The notes beneath the pieces were generated by a model, which worked only from the letters and a program-made list of their open reading frames with translations, made no database searches and was not told the DNA's origin. From NCBI GenBank assembly GCA_028716825.1, contig JAQUPA010000002.1, forward strand, positions 1-56,630: a stretch of 56,630 nt of DNA. The letters are read 5' to 3'. Of the stretch, positions 5,055 to 21,363 are shown one piece after another (within the stretch, counting starts at the first letter, position 1; every line of letters begins with the position of its first letter). This DNA comes from Minisyncoccota bacterium (GTDB lineage: Bacteria; Patescibacteriota; Minisyncoccia; Minisyncoccales; GCA-002788555). The position numbers and the translations under genes were made by a program.

Positions 5055-5076
5055 TTTTTTAGGTTCTGTATTTTAT

Positions 5077-5133: not shown

Positions 5134-5157
5134 GATTATTTTTTAAAAAGATTAATT

Positions 5158-6025: not shown

Positions 6026-6034
6026 AAAAGGAAT

Positions 6035-7438: not shown

Positions 7439-7525
7439 TATTCAACCTCCTGTAATCGTTCTTGACACTCTATATTATAAAAATGGGGCAAGAAGAATTC
7501 TCTCTTACCCCTGTGGCACAGATCA

Positions 7526-7702
7526 TCAACTACTCCTCGTTCTGGTCTTTGTCCCAGGAGAATTCTCGCAGTAACACGTTCCTCCGCAGATTCCCCCGCA
7601 ACGCATCTGCATTCCATCCTTTACTTTGCCCCTGATAAGGGCAAACTGTTTCTCCGTCGGCACTAGAACCACAACGTTCTTCGGTTCCTTCTTGTTTTCC
7701 AC
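7526..7702 (-). CDS. candidate Cys-rich RiPP precursor peptide (58 aa, not in the ORF track)
   Basis: GTG at 7702-7700 with AGGAGG 10 nt upstream, TGA at 7528-7526. Translation: MENKKEPKNVVVLVPTEKQFALIRGKVKDGMQMRCGGICGGTCYCENSPGTKTRTRSS. Ends 87 nt upstream of the rSAM/SPASM gene. Confidence 0.55.
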   Translation of the reverse strand: MENKKEPKNVVVLVPTEKQFALIRGKVKDGMQMRCGGICGGTCYCENSPGTKTRTRSS

Positions 7703-7798
7703 GTTCTCTCACCCTCCTTTCGCCTTCTTTATGTTCCTTCGCTTCCTTTTCTCTTATTAAAATTTCAAGGTTCAAAAAACTACTCAAAAACTACTAAT

Positions 7799-7826
7799 AT
7801 TTTATAATAATCACCCAAATTGTCAA
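7799..7826 (-). promoter_or_regulatory. sigma70-like promoter for the precursor-rSAM unit
   Basis: minus strand TTGACA (7826-7821), 16-nt spacer, TAAAAT (7804-7799), followed by a purine-rich leader. Confidence 0.55.
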
Positions 7827-7878
7827 ATATTTGGACAAAACAAGTATCATTTCATCAATTCATTTTTTATTAAAAGTC

Positions 7879-7906
7879 AAACCAAAAGCACGGGATTCCC
7901 CCGCGC
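7879..7906 (-). terminator. intrinsic terminator of the NUDIX gene (inside repeat copy B)
   Basis: minus strand GCGCGGG-GGAAT-CCCGTGC-TTTTGGTTTG. One pair is G-U on the minus-strand RNA and would be an A-C mismatch on the plus strand. Confidence 0.7.
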
Positions 7907-7929
7907 TAAGCTATTTTAAAGGTAAAGTG

Positions 7930-8364
7930 TTAAATCCCAAGTTCCTCTGCTACTTTTGGATTAAGCTCTGTTGTAATTAAACTCTTTATGGCTTCTGGTT
8001 TAACCCATTTAATTTCCGCTACTTCATGCGCTTCTTTTGGATTTGCAATGGGTTTTTCATTGTTTAGGGTACAAAGGTGATAAATAATTATAACTGAAAT
8101 CTGGGGATGAAAAGAAAGGTCTATTTGCTTTGTTGAAGTAACATCATATCCAGTCTCTGCTAAGACTTCCCTTCTTACGGCTTCCTCTCTTTCTTCGTTT
8201 GAAAATTGTTTTCCGCCGGGGAAAGCCCATTCTAAAATTGCGCCATCTTTACCTTTCTCCGGCTTTTTTCTTCTTATCATTAAAACCTCTCCTTTTTTAT
8301 TTAAAACTACACCTAAATTTATAAGCTTATTTGATTCTATAACTTTATTAGATTTTTTAGGCAT
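7930..8364 (-). CDS. NUDIX hydrolase
   Basis: Nudix box GGKQFSNEEREEAVRREVLAETGY (Gx5Ex7REUxEExGU). Confidence 0.85.
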   Translation of the reverse strand: MPKKSNKVIESNKLINLGVVLNKKGEVLMIRRKKPEKGKDGAILEWAFPGGKQFSNEEREEAVRREVLAETGYDVTSTKQIDLSFHPQISVIIIYHLCTLNNEKPIANPKEAHEVAEIKWVKPEAIKSLITTELNPKVAEELGI

Positions 8365-8434
8365 GTTGTTATCTTAATTTACTTTTAATTTACATTATAA
8401 AGATCTATTGTCAATAAAATTTAAACAATGAGTA

Positions 8435-8463
8435 TTGACAAATTCTTATTTTTTTTGTAAAAA
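8435..8463 (+). promoter_or_regulatory. plus-strand sigma70-like promoter
   Basis: TTGACA (8435-8440), 17-nt spacer, TAAAAA (8458-8463); the only convincing plus-strand promoter I found in the window. Confidence 0.5.
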
Positions 8464-8464
8464 A

Positions 8465-8945
8465 TATGATTGTGGAAAAACCATAACGTTCAGCTCTTTG
8501 AAAGGAAGATAAAAGACCACCGCTCGCTTAACGAAAAAGAAATCTGTAAGGAACGCTACAGCAATTCTGATTTCTGCAACAATTGTGACAGAATCTATCC
8601 CAATAAAAGGAATATAGAAAGTGTTCAAGATTAAGAAAGGAGTGATGCGCAACGAAAGTAGATCCAGATCCAGAAAAAACCTGCAAAGAGAACCAACCCG
8701 GTAAGTGGAAAGAATGTGGTAAACTTTGGGTCTCAAACGGAAACCAAAAACAAGCCATACAAAAGCTTACAGAGAACTGTCCAACAAGCTGCCCCTGGCA
8801 CTTCAATAACTCACCTTACGCAGTAAACAGAACAATAACAGCAATGGTGGTTAATTCTCACCGGGGTTCCTTTGACTGGTCTGAATGACAATCTTCCGGG
8901 GTAACAAATAGGGCCTAGTGTAATACGCTAGGCCTTTCGTCTTTT
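8465..8945 (+). ncRNA. structured non-coding RNA of unassigned class (weak rnpB-like blocks)
   Basis: About 480 nt with no credible ORF and higher GC than its flanks. It has a promoter upstream and a terminator at 8910-8945 (stem GGCCTAG/CTAGGCC extended by G-U pairs valid only on the plus strand, then TTTCGTCTTTT). Hairpins at 8470-8486 and 8538-8575. Confidence 0.45.
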
Positions 8946-8958
8946 AACTTATAAACTG

Positions 8959-10989
8959 CTATTGCCTTACTTTCCACTGAGGGTTTTTTTCGAGATTCTT
9001 TATAATATTTTTTTGAACTTTATCAACTTCTTTTGAAGAAAGGGTCTTTTTTTCTGACTGATAAATTATATGAAAAGACAGGCTTTTGTTTTTTTCTTTT
9101 TGATTGATATCCTCTTGATAAATGTCAAAAACTTCAACGTTTCTTATAATTTCTCCTCCTGTAGAATAAATTTTCTGGATAATTTCTCCTGCCAGAACAT
9201 TCTCAGGAACAACAACGGAAATGTCTCTTATCGTTTCTGGATAGACTGAAGGTTTTTTATACTCATGCTCCCCTTCAATTAAGTCTAGAAGTGTTTTAAA
9301 GTTAATTTCAAAAGCAAAAACGGGTATTTTTATATTATAAAAACCAAGAATTTTTTTTGATACTTCTCCCAAAAATCCTATCTTTTTATTTCCAGTCTCG
9401 ATTTCAGCTGATTTACCTTTCTCCCAGAAAATATTTTTTTCTTTTGTGTGACCGTAGAAAACATCAACCATCCCAAGTTCTTCAAAAAAACTTTCAAGAA
9501 GCCCTTTAAGCTCGTAAAATTCGGTTTTGCCTGCGATAATACCAGCAAAAAATCTTTTTTCTTTTTCTTTAAAAATATTTCCAATTTCAAAAAATCTAAC
9601 ATCTTTAAATCTCTTCTGGTTTAAAGTCACTGCTTTTAAGAGATTACAAATTAAAGAAAACCTTAGATATTTAGTATTTGAACTAATAGGGTTACCAAGT
9701 TCTGTTAGTTTTAATTTTTTGTTTAATTTTTTGAAAAAATCTCCTTCGTTATCTGAAATAAAAGAATAATTATAGGTCTCTGTAAAACCAAGCCCTTTCA
9801 TTAGTGTTCTTATTTTTTTAACCCATAAAAGATCTAAATTCTTTGGTGGCAATGCCTTTTGTAAAATTGAAAAAGTGGATGGTATGTTCTCGTATCCAAA
9901 AATCCTTCCAACTTCTTCAATTAAATCTTCTGGAATGCAAATATCTCGCCTAAAAGTAGGAATTTTTAAAATTAAGACAGCTTCTGATTCTCGCTGAATT
10001 TCAAATCCTAAATCCTTAAATATCTTTACTACTTTATCTTTTGAAATTTTAATTCCCAAGAGACTTCTTAGATAATTAAGATCAATTTTTATAATATTTG
10101 GGAAAGTCTTTTTTGGATAAAAATCCAAGACGCCAGATTTAATATCTCCCCCTGCAATTTCTTTTATAAGGCCTGCGACTTTATCTATCGCTTCTCTAGC
10201 TAAATTAGGGTCAATATTTGCGGAAAAACGCATTGAAGCATCTGTTTGTAATTTAAGTTTCTTTGACGTTCTATAAATACTAACACCGTTAAAATTCGCA
10301 GACTCTAAAATTATTCTCTTTGTATTTTTTTTAATTTCTGCTTTTTTCCCGCCCTTAATGCCTGCGATTGCAATTGGATATTTTGCATCAGCAATCACCA
10401 AATTATCTTTATCAAGGGTATATTTCTTGTCTTCTAAGGTGGTAATTTTTTCGCCTCTTTTTGCCTTTCTTACAATAATTTCTTTTTTTTCTTTTTTACC
10501 AAAAAGCTTTTCATAATCAAAAGCATGAAGAGGCTGGCCCGTTTCTAACATAATATAATTTGCAGCATCTACTATATTATTTATCGACTGAACACCACAG
10601 CTTTCTATCTTTTGTTTTAACCATTTTGGGGATGGAGCAACTTTAACATTATCAATTATCCTTGCGCAGTATCTCTGGCAAAGATCTTTACTTTTTATTT
10701 CAATCTTTAAAATATCAGCTGTTTTAATTTTCTTTTCTTCGCTAAATTTATATTCTGGTGCTTTAAATTTATATCCTAAGATTGCAGAAATTTCTCTTGC
10801 AATTCCAATATGAGAAGAACAATCCGGCATTCTGTCTGGTAAAACATCGATATCTAAAATCCAATCATCGCTTTTTTTAATTAAATCTTCTACTTCTAAT
10901 GTATGCATCATTAAAAGATCTGCCAATTTCTCTGGATTGGGTAATTTTTTTTGAAAAAATAATTGTAACCAGTTATATGAAAATTTCAT
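8959..10989 (-). CDS. pheT: phenylalanine--tRNA ligase beta subunit
   Basis: MKFSYNWL N-terminus, B3/4 and B5 region, position immediately after pheS. Confidence 0.9.
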   Translation of the reverse strand: MKFSYNWLQLFFQKKLPNPEKLADLLMMHTLEVEDLIKKSDDWILDIDVLPDRMPDCSSHIGIAREISAILGYKFKAPEYKFSEEKKIKTADILKIEIKSKDLCQRYCARIIDNVKVAPSPKWLKQKIESCGVQSINNIVDAANYIMLETGQPLHAFDYEKLFGKKEKKEIIVRKAKRGEKITTLEDKKYTLDKDNLVIADAKYPIAIAGIKGGKKAEIKKNTKRIILESANFNGVSIYRTSKKLKLQTDASMRFSANIDPNLAREAIDKVAGLIKEIAGGDIKSGVLDFYPKKTFPNIIKIDLNYLRSLLGIKISKDKVVKIFKDLGFEIQRESEAVLILKIPTFRRDICIPEDLIEEVGRIFGYENIPSTFSILQKALPPKNLDLLWVKKIRTLMKGLGFTETYNYSFISDNEGDFFKKLNKKLKLTELGNPISSNTKYLRFSLICNLLKAVTLNQKRFKDVRFFEIGNIFKEKEKRFFAGIIAGKTEFYELKGLLESFFEELGMVDVFYGHTKEKNIFWEKGKSAEIETGNKKIGFLGEVSKKILGFYNIKIPVFAFEINFKTLLDLIEGEHEYKKPSVYPETIRDISVVVPENVLAGEIIQKIYSTGGEIIRNVEVFDIYQEDINQKEKNKSLSFHIIYQSEKKTLSSKEVDKVQKNIIKNLEKNPQWKVRQ

Positions 10990-10991
10990 AA

Positions 10992-11960
10992 TTAAAATTG
11001 ATTAAGAAAGCGAATATCGCTGCTGTAAAATAAACGTATATCGTCAATATTATATTTAATCATTGAAAGTCTATCTATGCCAAAACCAAATGCAAATCCC
11101 TGCCAATCTTTAGGGTTAAGTTTTGCGTTTTTAAGAACATTGGGATGTACCATACCAGCTCCTGCGCATTCAAGCCACTTTCCGTTTTCTCCCCTTATAT
11201 CAATCTCAAAACTTGGTTCTGTAAAAGGAAAAAATCCTGGCCTCATTCTGACATCAACTTTTCTTCCAAAAAATTCATTAAAAAAGTTTTGGATAACTGC
11301 TCTAAAATCAACAACAGAAGTTTCTTTTTCTATCATCAATCCCTCTAACTGATAAAACTGAACTTCATGAGATACATCAGTTGCTTCATTACGAAAAACC
11401 CTACCAGGAACAACAATCCTTAAAGGAGGATTATTTTTTTCCATATAGCGCACTTGGACTGGAGAGGTATGCGTTCTCATCAACCTCCTTTTTTCTTTGA
11501 GCCATAAAGTATCTTGTATATCTCTTGCGGGGTGATCTTTTGGGAAATTTAAAGCATCAAAGTTATAACATTCATTTTCAATCTCAGGCCCCTCAACAAC
11601 AGAAAATCCCATTCTTTCAAAAATATCTTCACACTTTTCTAAAACTTGGGATAAGGGATGAATATGACCTCTTTGTAATTTTTTACCTGGTAAAGAAATA
11701 TCAATAAATCTATCTTCTTTAAAAGAAATTTTCTTTTCAATTTGGACTTTCTTCTCTTTAAAGAATTTTTCAGTCTCTTCTTTGAGTTTGTTAATCTCCT
11801 GTCCTTTCTTTTTTCTTTCTGCCTGAGAAAGACTACCGATTTCTTTAAATAATTGGTTGATTTTACCTTTTTTTGCTAAATATTTAATACGAAGCTGCTC
11901 TAATTCTTTTAAAGAAAGAGCTTTTTCGATTTCACTTTTAATTTGTTTTTTTAAATCCAT
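10992..11960 (-). CDS. pheS: phenylalanine--tRNA ligase alpha subunit
   Basis: class II motifs FRNEATDVSHEVQFYQLEG and GFAFGFGIDRLSMI. Confidence 0.95.
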   Translation of the reverse strand: MDLKKQIKSEIEKALSLKELEQLRIKYLAKKGKINQLFKEIGSLSQAERKKKGQEINKLKEETEKFFKEKKVQIEKKISFKEDRFIDISLPGKKLQRGHIHPLSQVLEKCEDIFERMGFSVVEGPEIENECYNFDALNFPKDHPARDIQDTLWLKEKRRLMRTHTSPVQVRYMEKNNPPLRIVVPGRVFRNEATDVSHEVQFYQLEGLMIEKETSVVDFRAVIQNFFNEFFGRKVDVRMRPGFFPFTEPSFEIDIRGENGKWLECAGAGMVHPNVLKNAKLNPKDWQGFAFGFGIDRLSMIKYNIDDIRLFYSSDIRFLNQF

Positions 11961-12020
11961 AACAAAAATTAAGCTTATTTTTATAATAGTAACAAAAAAA
12001 CGAGAAATTGAAAATAGTAA

Positions 12021-12332
12021 TTACTTTCTTGGCATTGTGGATAATTCTATTATTTTTTCGATATTATCAGTCTTTACTGTCTTTATACGGTGATTCTTGT
12101 CGCATTTTTGACACTTATAATAAATTATATATTCTCCTGATCTTTTCTCTGCTGAAATTGGCTCCATTAAGCCTTTGCAATCGCATTTTCTATCTCCTGG
12201 ATTTATATCTAAATGCTTTGACCAAAGGCATCTTGGACAATGATCAGTATAGCCCGTTCCCTTAACAGAAAAACCACATTTTTCACAGATAAAATCCTCT
12301 TTTTTCTTTTGAAATATTTTTTGCTTCAACAT
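12021..12332 (-). CDS. RNHCP-domain zinc-ribbon protein
   Basis: CEKCGF...HCPRCLWSKH...CDCKG...YKCQKCDKNH; layout matches my memory of the RNHCP domain family. Confidence 0.55.
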   Translation of the reverse strand: MLKQKIFQKKKEDFICEKCGFSVKGTGYTDHCPRCLWSKHLDINPGDRKCDCKGLMEPISAEKRSGEYIIYYKCQKCDKNHRIKTVKTDNIEKIIELSTMPRK

Positions 12333-12347
12333 TTTCTATAATAAAAG

Positions 12348-12389
12348 AAAAAACAGGCCCGAGGCCCTTTTTTCTTATAAAAATTTTGT
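12348..12389. repeat. 42-bp perfect direct repeat, copy 1
   Basis: AAAAAACAGGCCCGAGGCCCTTTTTTCTTATAAAAATTTTGT, identical to 16612-16653. It contains a GGCC/GGCC hairpin flanked by A6/T6, plus the stop and last four codons (TKFL) of 12375..13439. Confidence 0.95.
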
Positions 12390-13439
12390 CTCATTGTTTA
12401 TAACTTTTATAAATAATTCCTCTTCCCAATTTTTTCTAAATATTATATTTTTACTAGGTATTATTTTATCTAAAAAAAGAATGTAATTTGAATGTTTAAT
12501 TGCTCTTTTCGATTTTGGAAACAAAGCAATTTTTATTGGTTTTCCTCCTCTTTTTTTTACTTTTCGTTCAAGATAGTCAAGTGTATTACTTGAATAAGAC
12601 CTATCGATGATTGAGATTTTTTTATTTCTTAAATCTTTTCTGAATAATTCCATTTCTTTTGTCATATCTAAACTTAAATGACACTCCCACAACATTATCT
12701 TCTTTTTTATTCCTATCTCCTCTATAAAACCAAGGGCATATTTCAATCCTGCCTTTGGTATAAAAATATAAATGTCGCTTTTCGGTAATGTCTTAAAAAA
12801 ACCAAAAATAGCAAACCTAGGAAAGTTAATTTTCCCAAAAATAGAATATTCTTTTTTGAGACGGGAATAAAAATCTTTTGTCTTAAAACAGCACCTTTTA
12901 ATTTCTTTATTTTTTATTTTAATTTCTCGTTCTTTTATTATAGCCTTTATTTTTTTTAATTCTTTTTTCCAATGATTTGTTTTTTTAATTTTATAATAAA
13001 TAAATTTGGGAATTTGATTTATTCTATTATCAGAACCAGCGATTCTAATTTCTAAGTTAGAATGTGGTCCTTCTAAATAAACAATTTCGAGATTCTTAAA
13101 TCTAGATGAAATGTCTTTTTTAAACGAATAATGAACTTTTTCAGAAGTGAAAAGTTTATGCAGAGTAAATATCTCTGCCAAATTTAAAGTTGGATTTATA
13201 TAATTTTCACTGAGATCACAAAGCACTACCTCTGGTGCACGTAAAATATACCTATATTTTCCGGGATAAAAAGACCATCCCTTGCTCAGTTTATCTGCAA
13301 GTTTATCTCTATCTGTAGTAATGTCTATAAAATTACTTTTAAAATGGGGCTTATTGTAAACAAGAATACCATTTTTTAATTCCTGAACTGGCTTAAGTGT
13401 ATTATAAGTTTCGTCTAATAAACCTTCTTTATCTATCAT
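12375..13439 (-). CDS. hypothetical protein, weak phosphoribosyltransferase-like C-terminus
   Basis: KKISIIDRSYSSNTLDYL loosely resembles a type I PRTase PRPP loop. ATGA start/stop overlap with 13436..14698. The last four codons lie in the 42-bp repeat. Confidence 0.35.
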   Translation of the reverse strand: MIDKEGLLDETYNTLKPVQELKNGILVYNKPHFKSNFIDITTDRDKLADKLSKGWSFYPGKYRYILRAPEVVLCDLSENYINPTLNLAEIFTLHKLFTSEKVHYSFKKDISSRFKNLEIVYLEGPHSNLEIRIAGSDNRINQIPKFIYYKIKKTNHWKKELKKIKAIIKEREIKIKNKEIKRCCFKTKDFYSRLKKEYSIFGKINFPRFAIFGFFKTLPKSDIYIFIPKAGLKYALGFIEEIGIKKKIMLWECHLSLDMTKEMELFRKDLRNKKISIIDRSYSSNTLDYLERKVKKRGGKPIKIALFPKSKRAIKHSNYILFLDKIIPSKNIIFRKNWEEELFIKVINNETKFL

Positions 13440-14698
13440 AAAAATTTATAAAATTCATTTGCTATGCTCGATCTTGAACTTAAGGTACAACAAAAAGGCT
13501 TAAATTTATAATTTTTATAGATGCTTACTAATTTTTCTGTGAAATCTAAAATTTTCTGAGGGGGCAATGGATTACGATTACCCCAAACTGAACCTGGTCT
13601 AGGAAAAAAAACAGTATAATCGGAAACAACACCCTTCTTTGCAAGGGTTTCTATCCCAGCTATTAAACCACTCAATGGTTCTGTGCCTAATACGAAATTC
13701 GTTCTTGTTCTTCCTTTCCCAAAAATATCGGCACTATATATCAAAGACTCTAACATTCTATCATAGCCATAAATTTTTTCTTTTCCCGGACAAACTTTTT
13801 TGAAAATTTTTTTATTGAAACATTCTAAATTAAAACAAATGTATTTAAACCCATAATCAAATACCTTTTCAATATATTCAAAATTAAGAGGGGGCATTAA
13901 ATTAAAATAACTATCAACCTTAGAAAATTCTATTTTATCTTTTATAGAATCAACTATATCAAAAATCATTTTCCATTCAAAATCTAAATCCGAAATGTTT
14001 CCAGAAATTATCGAAAAGTGAAAATGAGGTCCAATTTTATCCCTTAATAAAAGATCGACGCACTGAGAAATTCTCTTTAGCGTTTTATCTCTATAGTAAT
14101 ACCACCAATTTTTATAATCTCCGTTAAATTTATTTTTAATCTCAAAAACGTTTGGTTTAAACCCCTCAAAACCTAATCTTTTGGGATTTGCCCCACAAAA
14201 CTTACACTGTTCTCCAGATATCCAGTTTTCACAACCATCATAAGGTATTATAGAAATTCTATCTACGCCTACTACACTTACAAATTCATCTACGGGTATA
14301 CCATTAATCTTCTTTTTATTATATGGATATAGAGGAACTGCCTTAACAGAAACGGGCATTCTTTTGTCTGTTTTTTTGTCTAATATTAAGAATTTTTTAT
14401 TTTTGACGAGACAAATAAAAGGAGATTCTTTCCTAAAATACACCTTTACTATTGATTTTTGATTACCATCCTCTAAGATCAATTCATCCGGAATAAAATT
14501 TCTTTTATCTGTTTTGACAGATATAAAATGCCTATCAGAAACTTTAATTTTATTGGCTTTATATTTTAAGGAAAATTCAGGAAATCCTTCTTGAATCGAA
14601 GAAAAATCAAAATCAAGACCAAAAGTCAATAAGAGAAGTTTAGTGTTTAGAACAAAAGAGGAAGTAGGGTTTTTTAGATAATGTTCAAAAATTTTCAT
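13436..14698 (-). CDS. radical-SAM-like protein with a non-canonical Cx8Cx2C cluster motif
   Basis: DGCENWISGEQCKFCG. Later NLECFNKKIFKKVCPGK and TNFVLGTEP resemble LipA/BioB-type barrel strands. About 150-aa N-terminal extension. Confidence 0.45.
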   Translation of the reverse strand: MKIFEHYLKNPTSSFVLNTKLLLLTFGLDFDFSSIQEGFPEFSLKYKANKIKVSDRHFISVKTDKRNFIPDELILEDGNQKSIVKVYFRKESPFICLVKNKKFLILDKKTDKRMPVSVKAVPLYPYNKKKINGIPVDEFVSVVGVDRISIIPYDGCENWISGEQCKFCGANPKRLGFEGFKPNVFEIKNKFNGDYKNWWYYYRDKTLKRISQCVDLLLRDKIGPHFHFSIISGNISDLDFEWKMIFDIVDSIKDKIEFSKVDSYFNLMPPLNFEYIEKVFDYGFKYICFNLECFNKKIFKKVCPGKEKIYGYDRMLESLIYSADIFGKGRTRTNFVLGTEPLSGLIAGIETLAKKGVVSDYTVFFPRPGSVWGNRNPLPPQKILDFTEKLVSIYKNYKFKPFCCTLSSRSSIANEFYKFL

Positions 14699-14704
14699 TT
14701 TAGT

Positions 14705-15250
14705 CTATTTTTTTGAAAAAGATATGTTGGCCCTTTTCGTTTTTTTGTCTTCCCAATATTCATTCCATAAATCCCAATATGTATCATTTATTTTTTCCTT
14801 AAAATTTAATCCGAGTTTCTTAGAAATAATTTTAATTTTCTGGGGTGAACCTTCTATTTCTAAAAATGTTCCTATTTTTGGTAACTTGTCCATAACAACT
14901 TCACAACCTCCAATTAACCATTTTTCTCTGTATTTTTCCATTGTATTAACTTTAGTAAAACCAAGTTCTTTCAAAATAGTATTCATTTTTTCTATATCGA
15001 AAATTTCAAGTTCTATTTCCTCCCTTTCTTTAAAATGTTTATTTATAATTTTCTTTTTTAAGGTAATTGTATTTTTAAAACCTTTTCTAGTTCGCAAAAA
15101 TGTACCTTTTTTAGAAAGAAAGTCGTCTGGTTTTTCAAAACGAAATGTTCTTTCAAAAGCTTTTCCTAAATATTTTGTTTTCTCTTTTTGAAGAATTTTC
15201 CTAACCCCTGAAGGTTTTCTAATTTTGAATTTTACCTCAATTTCTTTCAT
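14705..15250 (-). CDS. CYTH-domain protein (triphosphate tunnel metalloenzyme; CyaB/ThTPase-like)
   Basis: N-terminal EIEVKFKI = ExExK signature; 181 aa. Confidence 0.65.
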   Translation of the reverse strand: MKEIEVKFKIRKPSGVRKILQKEKTKYLGKAFERTFRFEKPDDFLSKKGTFLRTRKGFKNTITLKKKIINKHFKEREEIELEIFDIEKMNTILKELGFTKVNTMEKYREKWLIGGCEVVMDKLPKIGTFLEIEGSPQKIKIISKKLGLNFKEKINDTYWDLWNEYWEDKKTKRANISFSKK

Positions 15251-15314
15251 ATAGTTTTTATTTTAAAAATATCAAAAATGAATTTAAAAGTCAATTTTTT
15301 ATTTTCTATAAAAT

Positions 15315-15346
15315 AGCCTCCAAGCCTTACTTAAGGCTTGGAGGCT
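15315..15346 (-). terminator. 15-bp perfect hairpin overlapping the GreA-like stop codon
   Basis: AGCCTCCAAGCCTTA / TAAGGCTTGGAGGCT, followed on the minus strand by ATTTTAT and then a TTGACT -35-like element upstream of the CYTH gene. Confidence 0.65.
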
Positions 15347-15872
15347 CAACCTCCTGAACGAAGGATCTTATATCGACAATTCGGACTCTTCTAGTCCTCC
15401 CTAAGGGAAGAATTATTTTTACTTCCTCGCCCCTCTTTTTTCCAATTAAAGGAGCAATAAGAGGAGCCTTGTAAGAAATAAATCCTTCTTCGCTTTTGCA
15501 ATGTGGGTTATGGACGGTATCAAAAGATCCAACTACTTTCCAACTTTCCTCTTTACCTTCTTCGTCACGTATTGTTACTTCGGTCCCTATCCACACGCTT
15601 TTGAAATCTATACCTCTTATTTCCTCTTCAATTATCGCAGGCGCATTTAGAGGACCAAGTATCTGATAATACCTCTTTCTTAGTTTTTCCTGGTCCTGAA
15701 GAGTATAATCCCAATGGGGATTATCATGCCAATACCCTCCTGTATCATATGCTTGACGTAATGCTCGAGGTATCTCCTTACTTAAGATATCCTCTATTCT
15801 TTTAAGCTCTTCTCGCATGAAGATATAAGTATCTCTTAAAAGATAGTTCTTCTCCTTAATCATTGTCTTCAC
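15327..15872 (-). CDS. divergent GreA/GreB-family protein
   Basis: N-terminal coiled-coil-like region, then C-terminal FISYKAPLIAPLIGKKRGEEVKI resembling the GreA/B C-terminal domain. Starts 6 nt after the kinase-like gene. Confidence 0.5.
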   Translation of the reverse strand: MKTMIKEKNYLLRDTYIFMREELKRIEDILSKEIPRALRQAYDTGGYWHDNPHWDYTLQDQEKLRKRYYQILGPLNAPAIIEEEIRGIDFKSVWIGTEVTIRDEEGKEESWKVVGSFDTVHNPHCKSEEGFISYKAPLIAPLIGKKRGEEVKIILPLGRTRRVRIVDIRSFVQEVEPPSLK

Positions 15873-15878
15873 CCTTCC

Positions 15879-16433
15879 TTATAAACTAATTTCTTGCATT
15901 ATTCTGTTTAAAGATTGTTCAGGTTCTTCATTGCTTGTATCTATAAAGATATACCCGCCTTTCTCTTGAAAATAGTCTATGTATTTCTGCCGGAAAAAGC
16001 TATCTTCTTTTATTGTGTCGTATTTTGTTTTTTTCCCTCTATTCTCTATTCTTTCTTTTCTCTCTGGTTCGTTCGAGGTAAAAAGGAAAAAAGAAATATC
16101 TGGTTTCTCGATTAAAAACGAACCTAAAAATTCGTCTTTTATTTCTAATCCTAAGATCTTATGAATCGCGAGAGTTGAATCAATATATCTATCACATATT
16201 ATAATATGTGAATCCCTAATACTTTTTATTTGATCAGAAACAAAGACATTGCCCATTAAATAATAAAGAAATCTCACCCGAAGACTTGCCTCCTCGTCCA
16301 TAAATGATCTAAGTTCTCCTATTCTGAAAATAGAAGGGGGATTGACCACATACTTTGCTTTTAGTTCAGAAGCAAGCATCTTCGCTAAAGTCGTTTTTCC
16401 TCCACCATCAATACCTTCAAAAAGTATAAACAT
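15879..16433 (-). CDS. dTMP-kinase-like P-loop nucleotide kinase
   Basis: FILFEGIDGGGKTT P-loop and DRYIDST (DRY) motif. I prefer the ATG at 16433-16431 (GAAAGGAGG 8 nt upstream) over the track's TTG at 16463. Confidence 0.7.
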   Translation of the reverse strand: MFILFEGIDGGGKTTLAKMLASELKAKYVVNPPSIFRIGELRSFMDEEASLRVRFLYYLMGNVFVSDQIKSIRDSHIIICDRYIDSTLAIHKILGLEIKDEFLGSFLIEKPDISFFLFTSNEPERKERIENRGKKTKYDTIKEDSFFRQKYIDYFQEKGGYIFIDTSNEEPEQSLNRIMQEISL

Positions 16434-16611
16434 TGCACAACCTCCTTTCTCCGTTTCTGGCAAAAACGTATATTAATTCATCGGATTATTTTTTTAAATT
16501 ACTATCACCATTTTTGATAAATGATTAACTATTTTTTTTATATAATAAAAAATAATTACCGTCAATAAAGTAATCTATATTAAAAAATCTTGCCATCCCT
16601 TTTTATTCTTT

Positions 16612-16653
16612 AAAAAACAGGCCCGAGGCCCTTTTTTCTTATAAAAATTTTGT
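16612..16653. repeat. 42-bp perfect direct repeat, copy 2
   Basis: identical to 12348-12389; here it is the genuine 3' end (TKFL + stop) and downstream hairpin of the HD gene. Confidence 0.95.
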
Positions 16654-17247
16654 TTTGGGGGCGTATTTTTTATTTAATTCAACCCACCATTTATCAGTAT
16701 CAATTTCTTTTAACTTTTGGCCAAGTTTTTTTGCTGTGTCGGTTTTAAATCTTTCAAGAGTGAATTCAAGCCATTTTTCTGCTTTTTTATTGCCAAGTTC
16801 AAAACACTCTTTTTCAGTTAGCATTTCAGCTAGAATATCAGCGTCTTTTGTAACTTTTGCTTCTTTTGTCTCTCCTTTAAAATATTCTTTAAATAAATCT
16901 TTAAAATTAAAATCCTGAATATTGTGGTCTTCTGCAATTTCTTCAATGATTTTTAAATCATTGGAAGGAGAACTATAATATCTGTTTATAAGGTTGTGCT
17001 CGCCCGAGCGAGCCTCTATCAAATCATGAATAATCGCCATTTTTATAACCTTGTCTATGTCTACCTTTTCTTTCTTAGCTAAAATCCACGCAAAAATAAT
17101 AGTATAAAAACTATGTTCTGCAACATTTTCTTTAATAGGCCCTTTTAAATAATTATAAGAAGCACGAGGAATATATTTTAAAATTCGCGCCTCTAAAATA
17201 AGATTAACAAGATCTTCAATACAATCCTTTTTCTCTCCTTTGAACAT
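16639..17247 (-). CDS. HD-domain phosphohydrolase (YfbR-like 5'-deoxynucleotidase family)
   Basis: AEHSF ... IIHDLIEARSGE. The track start (TTG at 17277) overlaps the upstream gene; the ATG at 17247-17245 lies 11 nt after that gene's stop. Confidence 0.65.
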   Translation of the reverse strand: MFKGEKKDCIEDLVNLILEARILKYIPRASYNYLKGPIKENVAEHSFYTIIFAWILAKKEKVDIDKVIKMAIIHDLIEARSGEHNLINRYYSSPSNDLKIIEEIAEDHNIQDFNFKDLFKEYFKGETKEAKVTKDADILAEMLTEKECFELGNKKAEKWLEFTLERFKTDTAKKLGQKLKEIDTDKWWVELNKKYAPKTKFL

Positions 17248-17258
17248 ATAAATGAATT

Positions 17259-17954
17259 TTAAGGAATACAGATACAACCTACAAGTTTTCTACTGCCGTC
17301 ATATTCTGAAAGCGTACCACCTGAATAACCCAAGTCATTACTGCAATATCTTTGACATCCAGAAATACAGTAGAGTAAATTTTTCTGGTTAGATAAATCT
17401 TCATGATTACACATAGGTTGATGTGCTATTATCGTGCTTATAGGCACAACCTTCCATTCACTTCCATTTGTGCTTTTTATTTCTCCGTTTGCATGTATTG
17501 TACTAAGCCTGCTTAATCCAGTTGGATCTACTTTATAGTAAGAATTGTTTGTATCATAAAAAAGCTGAGAGTTTACGGCTCCACCAATAAGAGCACTGCC
17601 ATCAATTCCAATATTGTTTGACCATTGAAAAATAGCAGAATTTCCCAAGCGACTTGAGCTAGTCCATAGAGGTATACGATTTGAAGTTCCACTTCCTGTA
17701 ACTGAACCCGTAGGCCAACTTGTTATACAATTTCCCCTAAGACAAACCCTATTTGTTGCACTTAGAGTGGGTGAACTTACCTCTCCATTAACATTCAAAT
17801 TTCTTTTGAATATATAGTTGCCATTTGCAAATGAACCTGGCTCTACCTCGTCCGCAGAATGAAAAACGCCTTCTCTTGCAGCATAGACATACACACCGGC
17901 CAAACAAAGAACAAAAATGATAACGGAAAGAAAAATTATTTTATATTTTGGCAT
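17259..17954 (-). CDS. hypothetical secreted/anchored protein with a Cys-rich C-terminus
   Basis: N-terminal signal-anchor IIFLSVIIFVLCLAGVYVYA; C-terminal CISGCQRYC...GCICIP. Confidence 0.4.
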   Translation of the reverse strand: MPKYKIIFLSVIIFVLCLAGVYVYAAREGVFHSADEVEPGSFANGNYIFKRNLNVNGEVSSPTLSATNRVCLRGNCITSWPTGSVTGSGTSNRIPLWTSSSRLGNSAIFQWSNNIGIDGSALIGGAVNSQLFYDTNNSYYKVDPTGLSRLSTIHANGEIKSTNGSEWKVVPISTIIAHQPMCNHEDLSNQKNLLYCISGCQRYCSNDLGYSGGTLSEYDGSRKLVGCICIP

Positions 17955-17964
17955 ATTTTTTTTC

Positions 17965-18942
17965 TTATATCACACCGACCTTTTTTTTGGCTTTATTTAA
18001 TGTCTTTTGCGCCTCTCTTAAAGCTGCTGTTTTTCCTTCTTCTAAAACTTTTTTTATATAGTTTTCGTTTTTATCAAGTTTTTTCTTCTTGTCTCTTATT
18101 TTAGCTAAAAATTTATTTATATTTTTCGCTAAAATTTCTTTTGACTCTTGATAAGAAATACCGCCTTCTTTATATCTTTTTCTGATTTTTTCTAATTCAC
18201 TTTTTGGGCTAAATAATTTATGAAAATAAAAAACATTACAATTTTCAGGATTCTTTGGCTCCTCGGGCCGCTTTGAATCTGTAACTATTTTCATTATTTT
18301 TTCTTTCGTTTCTTCTTCTGAATCAAAAAGACCAATCACATTATTATAACTCTTGGACATCTTTCTACCATCCAACCCTTTAATTACTGCAACATCTTGT
18401 TTAACCATTATTTCTGGAATTTTAAATGTTTTTCCGTAAATATTATTAAATCTTTTAGCTGTTTCCTGAGCCATTTCAACGTGTTGTTTCTGGTCCTTCC
18501 CAACAGGCACAATATCTGAATTATATATTAAAATATCTGCTGCCATCAAAACCGGATAATCAAAAAGGCCCATATTCACTGACTTTCCCTTCGCAACTGC
18601 ATCTTTATATGCGTGTGCACGTTTTAGTAGCGCCATTGGCAAAATACAATTAAAAATCCAGCAAAGCTCTGTAACCTGCGGAACATCGGATTGTTTAAAT
18701 AAATGAACTTTCTTTGGATCAAGTCCCGCAGCAAGATACGCCTTTACAATTTCTAAACTATCTTTCTTAATTTTCTTAGGATCTTTTACCTGGTTTAAGG
18801 CATGATAGTCGGCTATAAAAATAAAACTTTCATAGTTTTTCTGAAATTCCAAAAACTGCATCATTGCGCCAAAATAATTTCCGATATGAAGATCACCAGT
18901 TGGCTTAATTCCCGATAATAATCTTTTTTTTGTCTTATGCAT
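17965..18942 (-). CDS. trpS: tryptophan--tRNA ligase
   Basis: GIKPTGDLHIGNYFGA (HIGH region) and KMSKS. Confidence 0.95.
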   Translation of the reverse strand: MHKTKKRLLSGIKPTGDLHIGNYFGAMMQFLEFQKNYESFIFIADYHALNQVKDPKKIKKDSLEIVKAYLAAGLDPKKVHLFKQSDVPQVTELCWIFNCILPMALLKRAHAYKDAVAKGKSVNMGLFDYPVLMAADILIYNSDIVPVGKDQKQHVEMAQETAKRFNNIYGKTFKIPEIMVKQDVAVIKGLDGRKMSKSYNNVIGLFDSEEETKEKIMKIVTDSKRPEEPKNPENCNVFYFHKLFSPKSELEKIRKRYKEGGISYQESKEILAKNINKFLAKIRDKKKKLDKNENYIKKVLEEGKTAALREAQKTLNKAKKKVGVI

Positions 18943-19002
18943 TTATGTGTTTTTAAAACGGATTAAAATCCGGCAAATCTAAAATGAGATTCTAGGACAA
19001 TT

Positions 19003-20058
19003 TTATTTAGAATTTCTTCTAAAAAGAGGTTTTACTCTTCTCTCTATAAAATAATCTGAATAATTTTCTTTTACAAGAGCAATAATAATGGCTGTTAAAG
19101 GAATAGAAAGTATTGCTCCTAAAACACCAAATACTTTACCGGCAATAAATAAGACGACTATAACTAAAATAGGGTGCAAATCCACTCTTCTTCTCATTAC
19201 AAAAGGAACAATTAGAAAGTTTTCAAGCTGTTGAACTATTATAAAAACCAAAGCTGCCCATAACGCCATAGGAACGCCACCCTGAACAAGCGCCAAAAAC
19301 GAACCAATAACTCCAGCCAAAACAGGACCTAACATCGGAATAACCTCAAGCACCGCTGCCAAAACCGCTAGTACCAAAGCATATTTAACACCAACCAAAG
19401 AAAGACCAATATAAACTAATAATCCAACTATTGTTCCTAAGATAAAATAGCTATAAAGCCAACGACCAGCTATATTCTCTGCCCTTTTCCATCCTTTTAA
19501 AATTTTATCTTCTAATCTCTTATTACCAGAAGCGATAAGTCCTGAAATTCTTTCTGCGGTTTTCTTCTCCACAGCAAAATAGAAAGAAATTATGACAACA
19601 AATATCAAGTTAAATAATCCTCCGAAAAATCCAGAAAGAACGCCTGCTGCAGCAGTAAGACCTTGAGATAAACCCTGGATAAAACCTGATAAAGAATTTT
19701 TAATACCCTCCAACAACCCTACGCCTCCTATTGCTTTGTCTAATTTTGAAATTAAATCAACAAAGTTTTCTGAAATTTGAGGAGAGGAAGTAAAGAAATT
19801 TTGAACTTCCGTGATAAGTGGCGGAAAGATTATTGCAAGAATTAAGCTAATAAAAATTAAAAATAAGATAAATATCAATACACCGGATAATGCTCTTGGA
19901 AATTTCTTTTTTTCTAAAAAATCAATCCCGGGCCTAAGAGCGGAAGCAATTACAAAAGCGAATACAAAATAAGCGACAATATCACGCAAAAAATACAAAA
20001 GCCAAATTGTCAATAAAACCGCTAAAACTTTAAGAGTGGCAGAAATAACTTTATCCAT
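19003..20058 (-). CDS. AI-2E family transporter (PerM/UPF0118-like permease)
   Basis: polytopic membrane protein with the typical length and C-terminal IPMLGP-containing region. Confidence 0.75.
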   Translation of the reverse strand: MDKVISATLKVLAVLLTIWLLYFLRDIVAYFVFAFVIASALRPGIDFLEKKKFPRALSGVLIFILFLIFISLILAIIFPPLITEVQNFFTSSPQISENFVDLISKLDKAIGGVGLLEGIKNSLSGFIQGLSQGLTAAAGVLSGFFGGLFNLIFVVIISFYFAVEKKTAERISGLIASGNKRLEDKILKGWKRAENIAGRWLYSYFILGTIVGLLVYIGLSLVGVKYALVLAVLAAVLEVIPMLGPVLAGVIGSFLALVQGGVPMALWAALVFIIVQQLENFLIVPFVMRRRVDLHPILVIVVLFIAGKVFGVLGAILSIPLTAIIIALVKENYSDYFIERRVKPLFRRNSK

Positions 20059-20106
20059 AAAAATTTGATATTATTAATTTTAACAAAATTTGGATAAAAA
20101 AATCAA

Positions 20107-21363
20107 CTAAAGTGTGAAATTTTGTATTTTTTTCTTTTTGGGGGAAATTACAGCTAAATTTAACCTACTTGGTGTAAAAATATATTTTGCAACATTAAGA
20201 ATATCTCTCTTATTTACTTTATCAATTGCTCTAATTTTTTCTTCCGGACTTATAATATTTCTTTCCAAAAGGGCCTGACTTGCATAAAAAGAAGCTATAT
20301 TGTCGCTTTCCTCCAAAGAAAGCCCGAATAAACCCTTTATGTATTCTTTTGCCATTTTTATTTCTTTTTCTGTCAAATTTCCTTTTTTTATTTTTTTATA
20401 CTCTTGTGTTATTAAAAAAGTTGCCTTTTCAATATTTTTATGGTCGATGCCAGCGTATGTTACTAAATAACCCGTGTCAGGATTTAATTCTACGCTCGTA
20501 TGAATATAATAAGCAAGACCCCTTTTTTCTCTAAGTTCCTGAAACATGCGAGAGGACATGTTACCACCAAGAATAACTGATAAAACCTGAAGAGCAAAAC
20601 GTCTTTTATCAAAAATATTAAAGGCGCGAACACCAAGAGCAAGATGTGTTTGTTTGGTATTCTTCTTAAAAAATAATTTCCTTGGACTTGTTTGAAATTC
20701 TCTTACAGATTTTTTCTTTTTTTGAGTTTTTTGACTTATATCTGAAAAACAATCCCCAATCATAGATAATGTTTTTTTATTGTCAATCTTGCCCGCAACA
20801 CAAACAACTGTATTTTGACTAACATAATAGTTTTTTATGTAATTTAAAAAATCTTCTCTTTGTATTTTTAAAACATTTTTTCTCTCTCCTGTTATTTTCC
20901 ATCCTGCTGGCTGATCGCCATATAAAAGCTCCTCCCACACCCACTCAATATAATGCATAGGAGTATCTTCAAACATTTTAATTTCTTCTATAATTACTCC
21001 CCTTTCTTTATTAATTTCTTCGTCTGGAAGCGTTGAGTTTAAAAATATATCCGAAACCAAATCAAGGGCTAAATTAAAATGGGAATAATCTACTTTTACA
21101 AAATATCCCGTATAATCTTTGGAAGTAAATGCATTTATAATCCCGCCGACACCATCAATTTCTTTTGAAACATCAAGAGCACTTTTTCTTTTTTTTGTTC
21201 CCTTAAAATACATATGCTCCAAGAAATGAGATATACCGTTTTCTTTTTTTGTTTCGTATTTTGTGCCAGCTTTTACCAAAATTAAAACAGTTACACTATG
21301 TGTGTTTTTCATTGGACAAGTAATTATTTTCAATCCATTCTTTAAAACTGTTTTTTTAAACAT
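20107..21363 (-). CDS. M16-family zinc peptidase
   Basis: inverted zinc motif HFLEH in GISHFLEHMYFKGT. Confidence 0.9.
   Translation of the reverse strand: MFKKTVLKNGLKIITCPMKNTHSVTVLILVKAGTKYETKKENGISHFLEHMYFKGTKKRKSALDVSKEIDGVGGIINAFTSKDYTGYFVKVDYSHFNLALDLVSDIFLNSTLPDEEINKERGVIIEEIKMFEDTPMHYIEWVWEELLYGDQPAGWKITGERKNVLKIQREDFLNYIKNYYVSQNTVVCVAGKIDNKKTLSMIGDCFSDISQKTQKKKKSVREFQTSPRKLFFKKNTKQTHLALGVRAFNIFDKRRFALQVLSVILGGNMSSRMFQELREKRGLAYYIHTSVELNPDTGYLVTYAGIDHKNIEKATFLITQEYKKIKKGNLTEKEIKMAKEYIKGLFGLSLEESDNIASFYASQALLERNIISPEEKIRAIDKVNKRDILNVAKYIFTPSRLNLAVISPKKKKIQNFTL

Follow-up and report, generated by a model that had tools for sequence, protein, structure and literature searches.

A conserved, repeat-flanked radical-SAM cassette with phosphoribosyltransferase-fold, CYTH and Gre or TFS partners in Patescibacteria, DPANN archaea and Firmicutes

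Viperins turn ordinary nucleoside triphosphates (NTPs) into polymerase poisons, a route common to animal and bacterial immunity. These radical S-adenosylmethionine (rSAM) enzymes are about 260-350 amino acids (aa) long, carry a CxxxCxxC motif and work by ddhNTP chemistry. In the MoaA/MoaC pair, the rSAM enzyme acts on GTP and the next enzyme handles the triphosphate. A further system, Ophion, comes from Gammaproteobacteria and consists of an rSAM protein (OpnA), a PHP protein (OpnB) and a phosphoribosyltransferase (PRTase; OpnC). According to the accessible part of its report (10.1101/2025.09.30.679545), it gives at least 10^6-fold protection against jumbo phages, both the rSAM protein and the PRTase are essential, OpnC falls in one clade with the PRTases of type III retrons, ShosTA and PsyrTA, and the authors propose that the system makes transcription-halting nucleotides. 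Here we analysed a stretch of 56,630 nucleotides (nt) from a Minisyncoccota bacterium (contig JAQUPA010000002.1 of assembly GCA_028716825.1, positions 1 to 56,630; hereafter the window). From the letters of the window alone, an original prediction had described a nucleotide-centred neighbourhood of seven products in and around a repeat-bracketed block and had suggested a modified-nucleotide, signalling or conflict-related function. We confirmed the observation and found the interpretation partly supported. The locus holds a conserved, mobile cassette of an rSAM enzyme, a protein with a phosphoribosyltransferase (PRT) fold and a CYTH enzyme, accompanied by kinase and Gre or TFS partners, and we have very little doubt about this description. 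The literature on combinations of rSAM, CYTH, PRT, NUDIX and kinase proteins, on viperin with CYTH and on RNHCP yielded no description of this gene set.

The genome that holds the window (on contig C2) has 647,599 bp in 34 contigs and is 98% complete. The window is A+T-rich, with a GC content of about 0.27-0.39 around the block; every gene near the block is on the minus strand, and the block is flanked by pheS/pheT (8959-11960) and trpS (17965-18942). All seven products lie where the original prediction had placed them, on the minus strand, and all of its domain calls passed profile or fold searches, including the three weak ones (PRTase-like, rSAM-like and GreA-like). A perfect 42-nt direct repeat, with 100% identity between its copies, marks the two ends of a 4264-bp unit. 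The 26-nt core of the repeat has only two sites in the whole genome, and a reversed control gave 0 matches. The bracketing that had been noticed is therefore real and unique to these two ends, but it encloses exactly five genes and leaves the HD and RNHCP genes outside. The repeats and the five genes are as follows.

12348..12389, direct repeat copy 1, 42 nt: final four codons and stop codon of the PRT-fold gene, and a terminator hairpin
12375..13439, minus strand, PRT-fold protein, 354 aa: C-terminal half with a predicted type I phosphoribosyltransferase fold; no Pfam match of its own
13436..14698, minus strand, variant rSAM enzyme, 420 aa: NF045502 'variant_rSAM' at 192.5 bits against a cut-off of 125
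14705..15250, minus strand, CYTH/triphosphate-tunnel enzyme, 181 aa: PF01928 at E 4.5e-15, 56.4 bits against a cut-off of 23.2
15327..15872, minus strand, Gre-like factor, 181 aa: PF01272 at E 2.4e-14, 53.5 bits against a cut-off of 26.9
15879..16463, minus strand, divergent thymidylate-kinase-like (TMK-like) nucleoside monophosphate (NMP) kinase, 194 aa: PF02223 at E 2.7e-19, 70 bits against a cut-off of 27
16612..16653, direct repeat copy 2, 42 nt: final four codons and stop codon of the HD gene, and a terminator hairpin

In each repeat copy the four codons and stop are followed by a short G+C hairpin and a T-run, and the HD and PRT-fold proteins both end in T-K-F-L through the codons shared in this way. 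The CYTH, rSAM and PRT-fold genes are tightly packed, with a 6-nt gap between CYTH and rSAM and a 4-nt overlap of the rSAM stop with the PRT start, and form one operon in the window.

To describe the neighbourhood elsewhere, we analysed 107 loci, namely 26 from species-representative genomes, 80 of the 90 found in metagenomes, and the window. Open reading frames (ORFs) were called anew, neighbours were labelled by hidden Markov models (HMMs) seeded from Pfam-checked members, and genes within 4 genes were counted as partners. Grouping of the loci at 80% rSAM identity gave 59 clusters, 40 of which were informative (at least 6 neighbours). The partners were distributed as follows.

PRT-fold protein, 38/40 clusters
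CYTH, 27/40 clusters
NMP kinase, 23/40 clusters
NUDIX, 16/40 clusters
Gre, 15/40 clusters
TFIIS-type ribbon, 4/40 clusters, one of which (L115) is a doubtful 67-aa fragment
nucleoside deoxyribosyltransferase-like protein, 4/40 clusters
HD, 3/40 clusters
MazG, 2/40 clusters
RNHCP, 1 cluster, that of the window

At least one of NUDIX, MazG and HD was present in 21/40 clusters. The real unit consists of the TMK-like kinase, the Gre-like factor, CYTH, the variant rSAM enzyme and the PRT-fold protein, and its invariant core is the rSAM gene translationally coupled to the PRT-fold gene, usually with CYTH. Around this core, different lineages recruit three kinds of partner. The first is an NMP kinase of the TMK, CMP kinase or guanylate kinase type or, once, a nucleoside diphosphate (NDP) kinase: the kinases are TMK-like in Patescibacteria and archaea; those of Firmicutes are CMP kinase, Cytidylate_kin2, guanylate kinase or AAA_28; and in L005 an NDP kinase lies inside the repeat-bracketed unit. 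The second is an NTP/NDP pyrophosphatase (NUDIX, MazG or HD), and the third a dedicated factor of the RNA polymerase secondary-channel type, which is a Gre protein with the tip W-H-D-[N/E] in Patescibacteria and a TFIIS/TFS ribbon in DPANN archaea and some close relatives.

The orders observed were TMK-Gre-CYTH-rSAM-PRT, Gre-rSAM-PRT-CYTH, rSAM-PRT-CYTH-TMK with Gre on the opposite strand, and TMK-CYTH-rSAM-PRT-TFIIS-type ribbon. Because gene order and orientation vary among the Patescibacteria loci, the linkage is not merely inherited synteny. Among the closest relatives, whose rSAM proteins are 63-68% identical to that of the window, L054-L058 have the order TMK-Gre-CYTH-rSAM-PRT followed by a 109-aa protein, and L049 and L050 have TMK-CYTH-rSAM-PRT followed by a TFIIS-type ribbon. 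The 109-aa protein is conserved after the PRT gene and inside the repeats (L054 5927-6256; also L046, L055-L057 and L119); it had no Pfam, NCBIfam or PADLOC match, and the window lacks it. A 322-aa protein in L097 (4852-5820) fuses a Ham1 (ITPase)-like piece with CYTH and lies downstream of rSAM-PRT-CYTH-TMK-Gre.

Fusions also join the components. In Firmicutes, a NUDIX domain is fused at the rSAM N-terminus in L009, and an approximately 60-residue piece resembling the leucyl-tRNA synthetase (LeuRS) editing domain is fused together with NUDIX at the rSAM C-terminus in L020, P0055 and P0058; elsewhere in Firmicutes a gene following CYTH encodes the LeuRS-editing-like piece and NUDIX as a protein of their own, about 290 aa long. 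In two giant proteins, P0067 (1266 aa) and P0071 (1141 aa), the rSAM part is followed by PRTase-CE (Pfam, E 3.4e-17 and 8.5e-16, respectively) and then by a long C-terminal region; these proteins could be a one-protein version of the system. About 450 residues of this C-terminal region had no family match. For several clades of type III-A retrons, PRTase-CE families are listed in PMC13712802 as the most frequent accessory domain. Among the 18 separate PRT-fold partners, none matched PRTase-CE (PF24390), and hhalign of their profile A2 against P0067 was not significant. Because of these two results, we read the rSAM-PRTase-CE fusion as a recurrent pairing of rSAM with PRT and not as common ancestry of the two PRT proteins.

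The genome records bearing the cassette come from Patescibacteria, Paceibacterota and Saccharibacteria among others, and also from DPANN archaea and gut Firmicutes. In 60 related genomes, 7 from the same family and 53 from the same order, the rSAM gene was not found; 47 of these genomes are at least 90% complete. Among the 59 loci whose flanks extend for 800 nt or more on each side, direct repeats spanned the cassette in 14, representing 7 further lineages.

L052: repeat of 49 nt, 100%, around CYTH-rSAM-PRT alone
L054 (and L055): repeat of 69 nt, 97%
L056, L057: repeat of 95 nt, 80%
L049, L050: repeat of 32-47 nt
L005: repeat of 74 nt, 84%
L012, L090: repeat of 45 nt, 93-96%, around a nine-gene array
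L104, L106, L109, L110, L123: repeat of 123 nt, 85-86%, at serine-recombinase genes

Across lineages these repeats measure 32-123 nt and are unrelated in sequence, and most loci contained 0-2 other repeats. Serine recombinases flank the Firmicutes arrays and were seen in Firmicutes loci only; Patescibacteria units carry no recombinase gene inside. We regard the block as a discrete cassette that moves horizontally. Its repeats might have arisen by single-crossover integration of a circle with a copy of the target, or they might be attachment sites used in trans. The same picture would result if a circular element had been threaded into the assembly through a shared 42-mer, which likewise implies a mobile unit. 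A search for the pre-insertion site found no shared synteny upstream of PheS in 4 same-family genomes.

Searches outside cellular chromosomes added distant relatives. By tblastn, three distant rSAM matches were found on megaplasmids, the one in Rahnella without informative context. On an Agrobacterium pusense megaplasmid (L179; NZ_CP123353.1 47030-50900), a distant NF045502-type rSAM protein (24% identity) lies in an array of a 750-aa rSAM protein, the variant rSAM protein and a NUDIX protein, with a restriction endonuclease nearby. We also considered a phage-borne hypermodification pathway and rejected it: there was no relative in IMG/VR, and 50,697 phage records gave one distant tblastn match (24% identity).

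The remaining features around the five genes are listed below.

12021..12332, minus strand, RNHCP zinc-ribbon protein: PF12647 at E 8.6e-27; adjacent to the cassette and outside it
15266..15294, minus strand, promoter-like site ahead of CYTH (TTGACT, 17 nt, TG, TATTTT): a consensus match only
15315..15346, minus strand, strong terminator-like hairpin of 14 pairs after the Gre gene, splitting TMK-Gre from CYTH-rSAM-PRT
16464..16611, minus strand, A+T-rich spacer of 148 nt inside the unit, upstream of the kinase gene; presumed promoter
16639..17277, minus strand, HD_3/YfbR-like phosphohydrolase: PF13023 at E 1.8e-21, YfbR-like PF12917 at E 1.8e-10; outside the repeats

The seven genes had originally been taken as one set. 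Linkage elsewhere is indeed conserved for the PRT-fold protein, CYTH, the NMP kinase and Gre, and a five-gene core stands, but two genes drop out. RNHCP does not belong to the cassette, because it lies beside it in only 1/59 clusters, that of the window, and also occurs in 5/40 relatives without the cassette; copies in three same-family genomes are 57-62% identical to that of the window and lie in other contexts. It is an unrelated gene of the lineage. The HD gene does not belong either, because its position is beyond the repeats and only 3/40 informative clusters have an HD protein as a partner; the HD proteins found close to other cassettes are of different subfamilies, and the HD protein of the window is not conserved in 5 same-family genomes, one of which gave weak partial matches (27-32% identity). 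HD is at most a loosely linked accessory.

Several side observations concern the surroundings. A 231-aa protein (17259-17954, minus strand) with an N-terminal hydrophobic segment and without a family match is encoded by a gene whose 3' end overlaps the HD start by 19 nt. A canonical rSAM protein of 467 aa (6035-7438, minus strand; PF04055 E 1.7e-18, Fer4_12) is encoded 5 kb from the cassette, and a MutT-like NUDIX hydrolase (7930-8364, minus strand; PF00293 E 5.2e-18) about 4 kb off, beyond pheST and outside the repeats; NUDIX genes are frequent cassette neighbours in other loci. No tRNA gene was found within 5000-25000 of the window. A riboswitch or known RNA element in the unit was rejected, as Rfam gave only sub-threshold matches, on the terminator hairpin. 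The idea that the cassette replaces ribonucleotide reductase was also rejected, as a class III NrdD (669 bits) is present in the genome; the large subunit of class I/II ribonucleotide reductase was not found there.

These data bear on the simplest explanation, that the block is a chance neighbourhood of housekeeping nucleotide genes and that the repeat is a duplicated terminator. The genome is dense, the window genes all lie on one strand, the repeat does hold a terminator hairpin, RNHCP is unrelated and HD is weakly linked. However, the PRT-fold protein and CYTH recur in 38/40 and 27/40 clusters across three phylum-level groups, components are fused, the Gre proteins form a cassette-specific clade (see below), and the repeat occurs only at the cassette ends; 7 other lineages have flanking repeats too, with unrelated sequences. 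Because of the linkage, the Gre clade, the repeats and the fusions, this explanation is refuted for the five-gene core; it survives for RNHCP and perhaps for HD, and as an account of the locus we give it almost no credence.

By its profile match, the rSAM enzyme is assigned to the radical SAM superfamily, within the NF045502 variant_rSAM family. Its match to PF04055 (E 0.0058, 17.3 bits) was below the cut-off of 29.5, and it missed that of TIGR04043 widely (32.7 bits against 303.7). In alignments of 19 and 34 homologues, C156, C165, F167 and C168 are invariant, so that the cluster motif has the spacing Cx8Cx2C and not the canonical Cx3Cx2C, with an aromatic residue preceding the last Cys; C303 (in CPGK) and C404 (in C..SSRSS) are invariant as well. 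An N-terminal domain of about 140 aa had no family match, sequence and profile searches found no related solved structure, and the ESM Atlas contained no model of the enzyme. The original prediction had held that the Cys motif and length are not viperin-like, which proved correct: searches with the PADLOC pVip model gave nothing at E <= 0.1 for this 420-aa protein, and NF038283 and TIGR04278 were absent among its NCBIfam matches.

The rSAM enzyme is rare. A word index of 5.8 billion clustered proteins gave 59 matches (Patescibacteria, Nanoarchaeota and Clostridia). Searched with the family profile, 1.84 billion representatives contained 1020 proteins at E <= 1e-10, of which 174 reached E <= 1e-30. 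The wider relatives checked (about 385-430 aa) scored 158-305 bits with NF045502 and 53-130 bits with TIGR04043 (MSMEG_0568 family rSAM). The subgroup of the window is a divergent branch of this NF045502/TIGR04043 group and, as far as examined, only this subgroup is accompanied by PRT-fold and CYTH partners. To our knowledge, neither family has a known function.

The PRT-fold protein was modelled with AlphaFold2 from an alignment of 18 sequences (mean predicted local distance difference test score, pLDDT, 90.8). In this model, residues ~172-323 superpose on the HGXPRT structure 4z1o (Z 9.9, root-mean-square deviation 3.3 over 116 residues), and all 13 chains at Z >= 8 are PRTs or phosphoribosyl pyrophosphate (PRPP) synthetases; the top Foldseek matches were orotate PRT, PRPP synthetase and hypoxanthine PRT. 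The model thus predicts a type I PRT fold for the C-terminal half. The N-terminal half gave a kinase-N-lobe-like match at Z ~6, in the noise range of the tool, and the ESM Atlas model of the protein was poor (pLDDT 0.42, template modelling score 0.40). In sequence searches, 5/18 family members touched PF00156 (best E 2.6e-4), the window protein had no match, and profile A2 of the family found 1vdm in the PDB at E 0.0013. A canonical PRPP-binding loop has two acidic residues followed by a turn of the T/S-G-x-T type. The corresponding loop here reads D279-x-x-Y282-S-G284-x-T286, with D279, Y282 and T286 invariant and one acidic residue kept.

The CYTH enzyme has the N-terminal ExExK motif (E-I-E-V-K at residues 3-7). 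It scored 74 bits with the class IV adenylate cyclase model TIGR00318 (cut-off 57.95), and its closest solved chain is the triphosphate tunnel metalloenzyme (TTM) Saci_0718 (7ns8, E 1.3e-10). The TMK-like kinase stayed below the cut-off of the dTMP kinase equivalog TIGR00041 (71.9 bits against 83.25) and matched PDC-M51B (E 5.8e-22) and VakA (E 3.4e-17) in PADLOC. It is the only PF02223 match of its genome (69.8 bits) and the lowest-scoring full-length one among 26 genomes; the best matches in the 22 relatives that have one reach 81.9-182.7 bits. The canonical tmk may be hidden in a gap of the assembly, or the cassette kinase may have taken its place.

The Gre-like factor is one of three Gre-family genes in this genome. 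With the GreA equivalog TIGR01462 it reached 55 bits and missed the cut-off of 139. We compared 21 distinct cassette-linked Gre proteins (at least 150 aa) with 31 others, 2 from the window genome and 29 from relatives. The coiled-coil tip reads W-H-D-[N/E] in 19/21 cassette-linked proteins and W-[M/K]-E-D in the other 2; in the window it is G-G-Y-W-H-D-N-P-H-W, where the canonical acidic tip of the relatives' GreA is G-D-L-x-E-N-x-E-Y. The Trp tip motif was found in 0/31 of the other proteins, which mainly have the two tip types G-D-L-x-E-N-x-E-Y and P-E-D-L-N-P-x-Y, and was also absent in four weaker Gre matches of relatives. In the maximum likelihood tree, the 21 cassette proteins lie on one side of a branch with an ultrafast bootstrap value of 94, an SH-aLRT value of 89 and presence in 96% of bootstrap trees, a support below the 'starred' level of the tool. 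Tip and tree together indicate that the cassette-linked Gre proteins are a cassette-specific subfamily. A word-index search for W-H-D Gre proteins, which is insensitive, returned 3 and 11 proteins. Compared with GreA/GreB, Gfh1, Rnk and DksA, the cassette factor shares the GreA_GreB C-terminal domain and the overall Gre length; it differs from GreA/GreB in its tip, in equivalog scores below the cut-off and in its own clade. In a same-family genome without the cassette (G005:C5:9870-11134; L034, L035, L142), a Gre paralogue of the P-E-D-L-N-P type lies directly upstream of a 429-aa ORF weakly similar to the HD protein of the window.

Where Gre is absent, a two-ribbon protein of the TFIIS/RPB9 type can replace it (L049-L051 and the archaeal L004 and L006). 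The ribbon gene directly follows the PRT gene in L049-L051 and lies two or three genes upstream in the archaea: in Nanoarchaeota (L004) a TFS/RPB9-like ribbon is two genes upstream, and in Nanohalarchaeota (L006) the order is TFS-like, TMK-like, NUDIX, rSAM, PRT, kinase-like. All five ribbon proteins have a [W/Y]-[G/A]-D-E-D loop and share the acidic D-E-D with archaeal TFS. The acidic Gre tip and the acidic loop of TFS/TFIIS both reach the active site of the polymerase by way of the secondary channel. No other feature says as much about the likely target of the cassette as its association with two unrelated folds of this functional class.

Comparison with the described antiviral systems revealed both likenesses and differences. 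Like prokaryotic viperins, the cassette pairs an rSAM enzyme with an NMP kinase (in 23/40 clusters), and its distribution is patchy and mobile; both the window kinase and the CMP kinase of Firmicutes match PADLOC VakA. In one Firmicutes group (L016, L104-L110, L123), the array consists of a recombinase, a CYTH protein of 282 aa, a second rSAM protein of 268 aa, LysR, the variant rSAM enzyme, PRT, CYTH, a LeuRS-like NUDIX protein and a recombinase fragment. This 268-aa rSAM protein in L016 and L106 matches PADLOC pVip at E 7.8e-44, and the viperin model NF038283 is its best NCBIfam match at 144-146 bits, below the cut-off of 180. In L104, L106, L109, L110 and L123, a serine recombinase gene and a 135-aa recombinase fragment bound the array (~3300-12000 in L106), and a UvrD/GajB-like helicase gene lies just downstream of the L106-type array. 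The pVip labels obtained in the Patescibacteria loci L048, L061, L074 and L119 were over-called by the HMM and belong to SPASM or other rSAM enzymes. The cassette enzyme differs from viperins in its Cx8Cx2C motif, its 420 aa, its extra N-terminal domain of about 140 aa and its lack of a pVip or NF038283 match, and the cassette in its obligate PRT-fold and CYTH partners and its dedicated Gre/TFS-like factor. The analogy with viperin-plus-kinase pairs that had been drawn originally gains support from the PADLOC matches of the kinase (VakA and PDC-M51B), from the viperin-like neighbour in one Firmicutes group and from the reported Ophion system.

MoaA/MoaC resembles the cassette in that its rSAM enzyme, too, has a triphosphate-processing enzyme after it. 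Ahead of the cassette in L020 and L025 lie a MoaA-like rSAM protein, a further CYTH and a guanylate kinase, so that these MoaA-like proteins have a CYTH of their own. The cassette rSAM enzyme is not homologous to MoaA, nor CYTH to MoaC, and the likeness is one of analogy only. From the viperin-like arrays (L016 group) and the MoaA-like ones (L020, L025), it follows that CYTH repeatedly pairs with rSAM proteins of the NTP-acting type. With Ophion, as described in the accessible part of its report, the cassette shares a three-gene set of rSAM protein, phosphoesterase and PRTase; the accessories of type III-A retrons carry PRTase-CE, which is fused to the cassette rSAM family in P0067 and P0071. 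The differences are that the Ophion rSAM protein is viperin-related and that of the cassette belongs to NF045502, a comparison by description; that PHP has the middle role there and CYTH here; and that the same part of the report mentions no Gre/TFS factor. No PHP domain was present among the cassette neighbours scanned. By analogy, the cassette may work like viperin with its kinase or like Ophion while being a member of neither, a comparison that we offer tentatively.

From the gene content, the conserved linkage, the fusions, the Gre subfamily, the repeat bracketing and the patchy distribution, all of which are observed, we infer the substrate, the product, the RNA-polymerase target, the defence or conflict role and every chemical step. 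In our preferred reading, the cassette is a mobile system of the conflict type whose product, a modified NTP, acts at RNA polymerase; we find this plausible, though we stop short of calling it probable. First, the NMP kinase and the cellular NDP kinase would feed a nucleoside triphosphate. Second, the rSAM enzyme would alter its sugar or base by radical chemistry, with the PRT-fold partner holding the phosphoribosyl moiety. Third, CYTH and the pyrophosphatases would process or limit the triphosphate product. Fourth, this product would act at RNA polymerase, for example as a transcription-halting nucleotide against invading genetic elements. Finally, the Gre/TFS-like factor would rescue the host polymerase by excising the analogue or would mediate the nucleotide effect. 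In its most specific form, a non-viperin rSAM enzyme and its PRT-fold partner would make an RNA-polymerase-directed nucleotide, the system's own factor (Gre in bacteria, TFS/TFIIS in archaea) would proofread the analogue, giving self-immunity by transcript cleavage, or would act as co-receptor, and the repeat-flanked module without a recombinase would move among Patescibacteria, DPANN archaea and Firmicutes. We consider it doubtful that this version holds in full.

In another reading, the rSAM enzyme, the PRT-fold protein and CYTH would make a modified or cyclic nucleotide as an alarmone, and Gre/TFS would be a co-receptor in the secondary channel through which the signal reprograms or shuts down host transcription. 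ppGpp acts with DksA on the polymerase, and Sulfolobus has an inhibitory TFS paralogue. The CYTH score above the class IV adenylate cyclase cut-off (TIGR00318) agrees with such a function, as do the NUDIX, MazG and HD proteins, which could degrade the signal, the Gre tip, which is remodelled to W-H-D-[N/E] and not simply lost, the several Gre-family NCBIfam models touched that are named 'nucleoside diphosphate kinase regulator', and a structural neighbour of the PRT-fold protein, 5vog (Z 7.0), that was solved with bound ppGpp. However, the cassette has no sensor or receiver domain, the closest solved CYTH (7ns8) is a triphosphatase-type TTM and not a cyclase, the Firmicutes versions are without a Gre or TFS factor, and an rSAM step is unusual for messenger synthesis. 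We therefore regard an alarmone module as improbable.

Several results weigh against a mobile conflict system. No core protein (rSAM, PRT-fold, CYTH or Gre-like) matches any PADLOC model, and the viperin-like neighbour occurs in one 80% cluster only, with its NF038283 score under the cut-off. The enrichment near defence islands that the original prediction had proposed to look for did not appear: the 112 flanking proteins of 15 Firmicutes loci showed no obvious defence island and few PADLOC matches, mostly generic helix-turn-helix, helicase or ATP-binding cassette proteins. The unit of the window contains no recombinase gene, and a search of 2.9 million IMG/VR contigs found no relative. The contigs of four other runs, which are short and of low depth, showed neither an excised nor an empty-site form; they break at the repeats, and their joints have 20-41-nt sides, none at the spacing of the repeats and none with a 4264-nt skip. 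The context is also mixed, because L069 (1538-3650) has a terminase neighbour: there an rSAM homologue without a PRT-fold partner is followed by a 183-aa protein and a Terminase_6C-like protein, which may be a prophage context. The cassette of the window sits among housekeeping genes, salvage-type neighbours (nucleoside hydrolase, deoxyribosyltransferase-like, deaminases, thymidylate-synthase-like) are frequent, and the cassette kinase, the sole Tmk-like gene in a 98%-complete genome, fits a metabolic role equally.

Some of these observations would be expected of an accessory salvage or repair module, in which a scavenged and possibly modified base would be turned into a nucleotide, or exchanged, by the PRT-fold protein, the rSAM enzyme would strip off or rearrange a modification, the kinase would add a phosphate to the NMP, and CYTH, NUDIX, MazG or HD would clear by-products. 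Such a module would benefit ultra-small symbionts and gut anaerobes dependent on scavenged nucleosides, and the hosts of the cassette are indeed gut Firmicutes and Patescibacteria and DPANN archaea whose genomes are tiny (647.6 kb here). Its neighbours include an IU-nucleoside hydrolase (L088), a nucleoside deoxyribosyltransferase-like protein (L079 group), an adenosine deaminase (L124), a dCMP-deaminase-like protein (L013), a thymidylate-synthase-like protein (L009) and an NDP kinase (L005), besides the sole Tmk-like kinase and, in the window, the surrounding aminoacyl-tRNA synthetase genes. An rSAM queuine lyase acts in queuosine salvage in Clostridia. However, salvage leaves unexplained the dedicated Gre clade and the TFIIS-type ribbons, the PRTase-CE and long C-terminal fusion, and the viperin-like and MoaA-like companion rSAM proteins, and the rSAM gene was not found in the 60 relatives, which have the same lifestyle. 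Salvage or repair thus seems to us unlikely, though well worth keeping in mind.

We class the cassette as a putative rSAM-based nucleotide-modifying system whose unusual features are its secondary-channel factor and its spread across domains. If the reading as a conflict system that modifies NTPs is true, the cassette would be a third working design beside viperins and Ophion, the second design, which pairs an rSAM protein with a PRTase. It would rely on another family of rSAM enzymes, whose cluster motif is unusual. The cassette occurs in the least-studied microbes, Patescibacteria and DPANN archaea, but also in Firmicutes that can be cultured, among them Lacrimispora and Paenibacillus. Its most unusual feature, the dedicated Gre/TFS-like factor, points to a testable answer to the question of self-protection or control of the host RNA polymerase, and the product could be a new natural nucleotide analogue. 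Finally, a repeat-flanked unit without a recombinase raises the question of how the cassette moves in ultra-small genomes.

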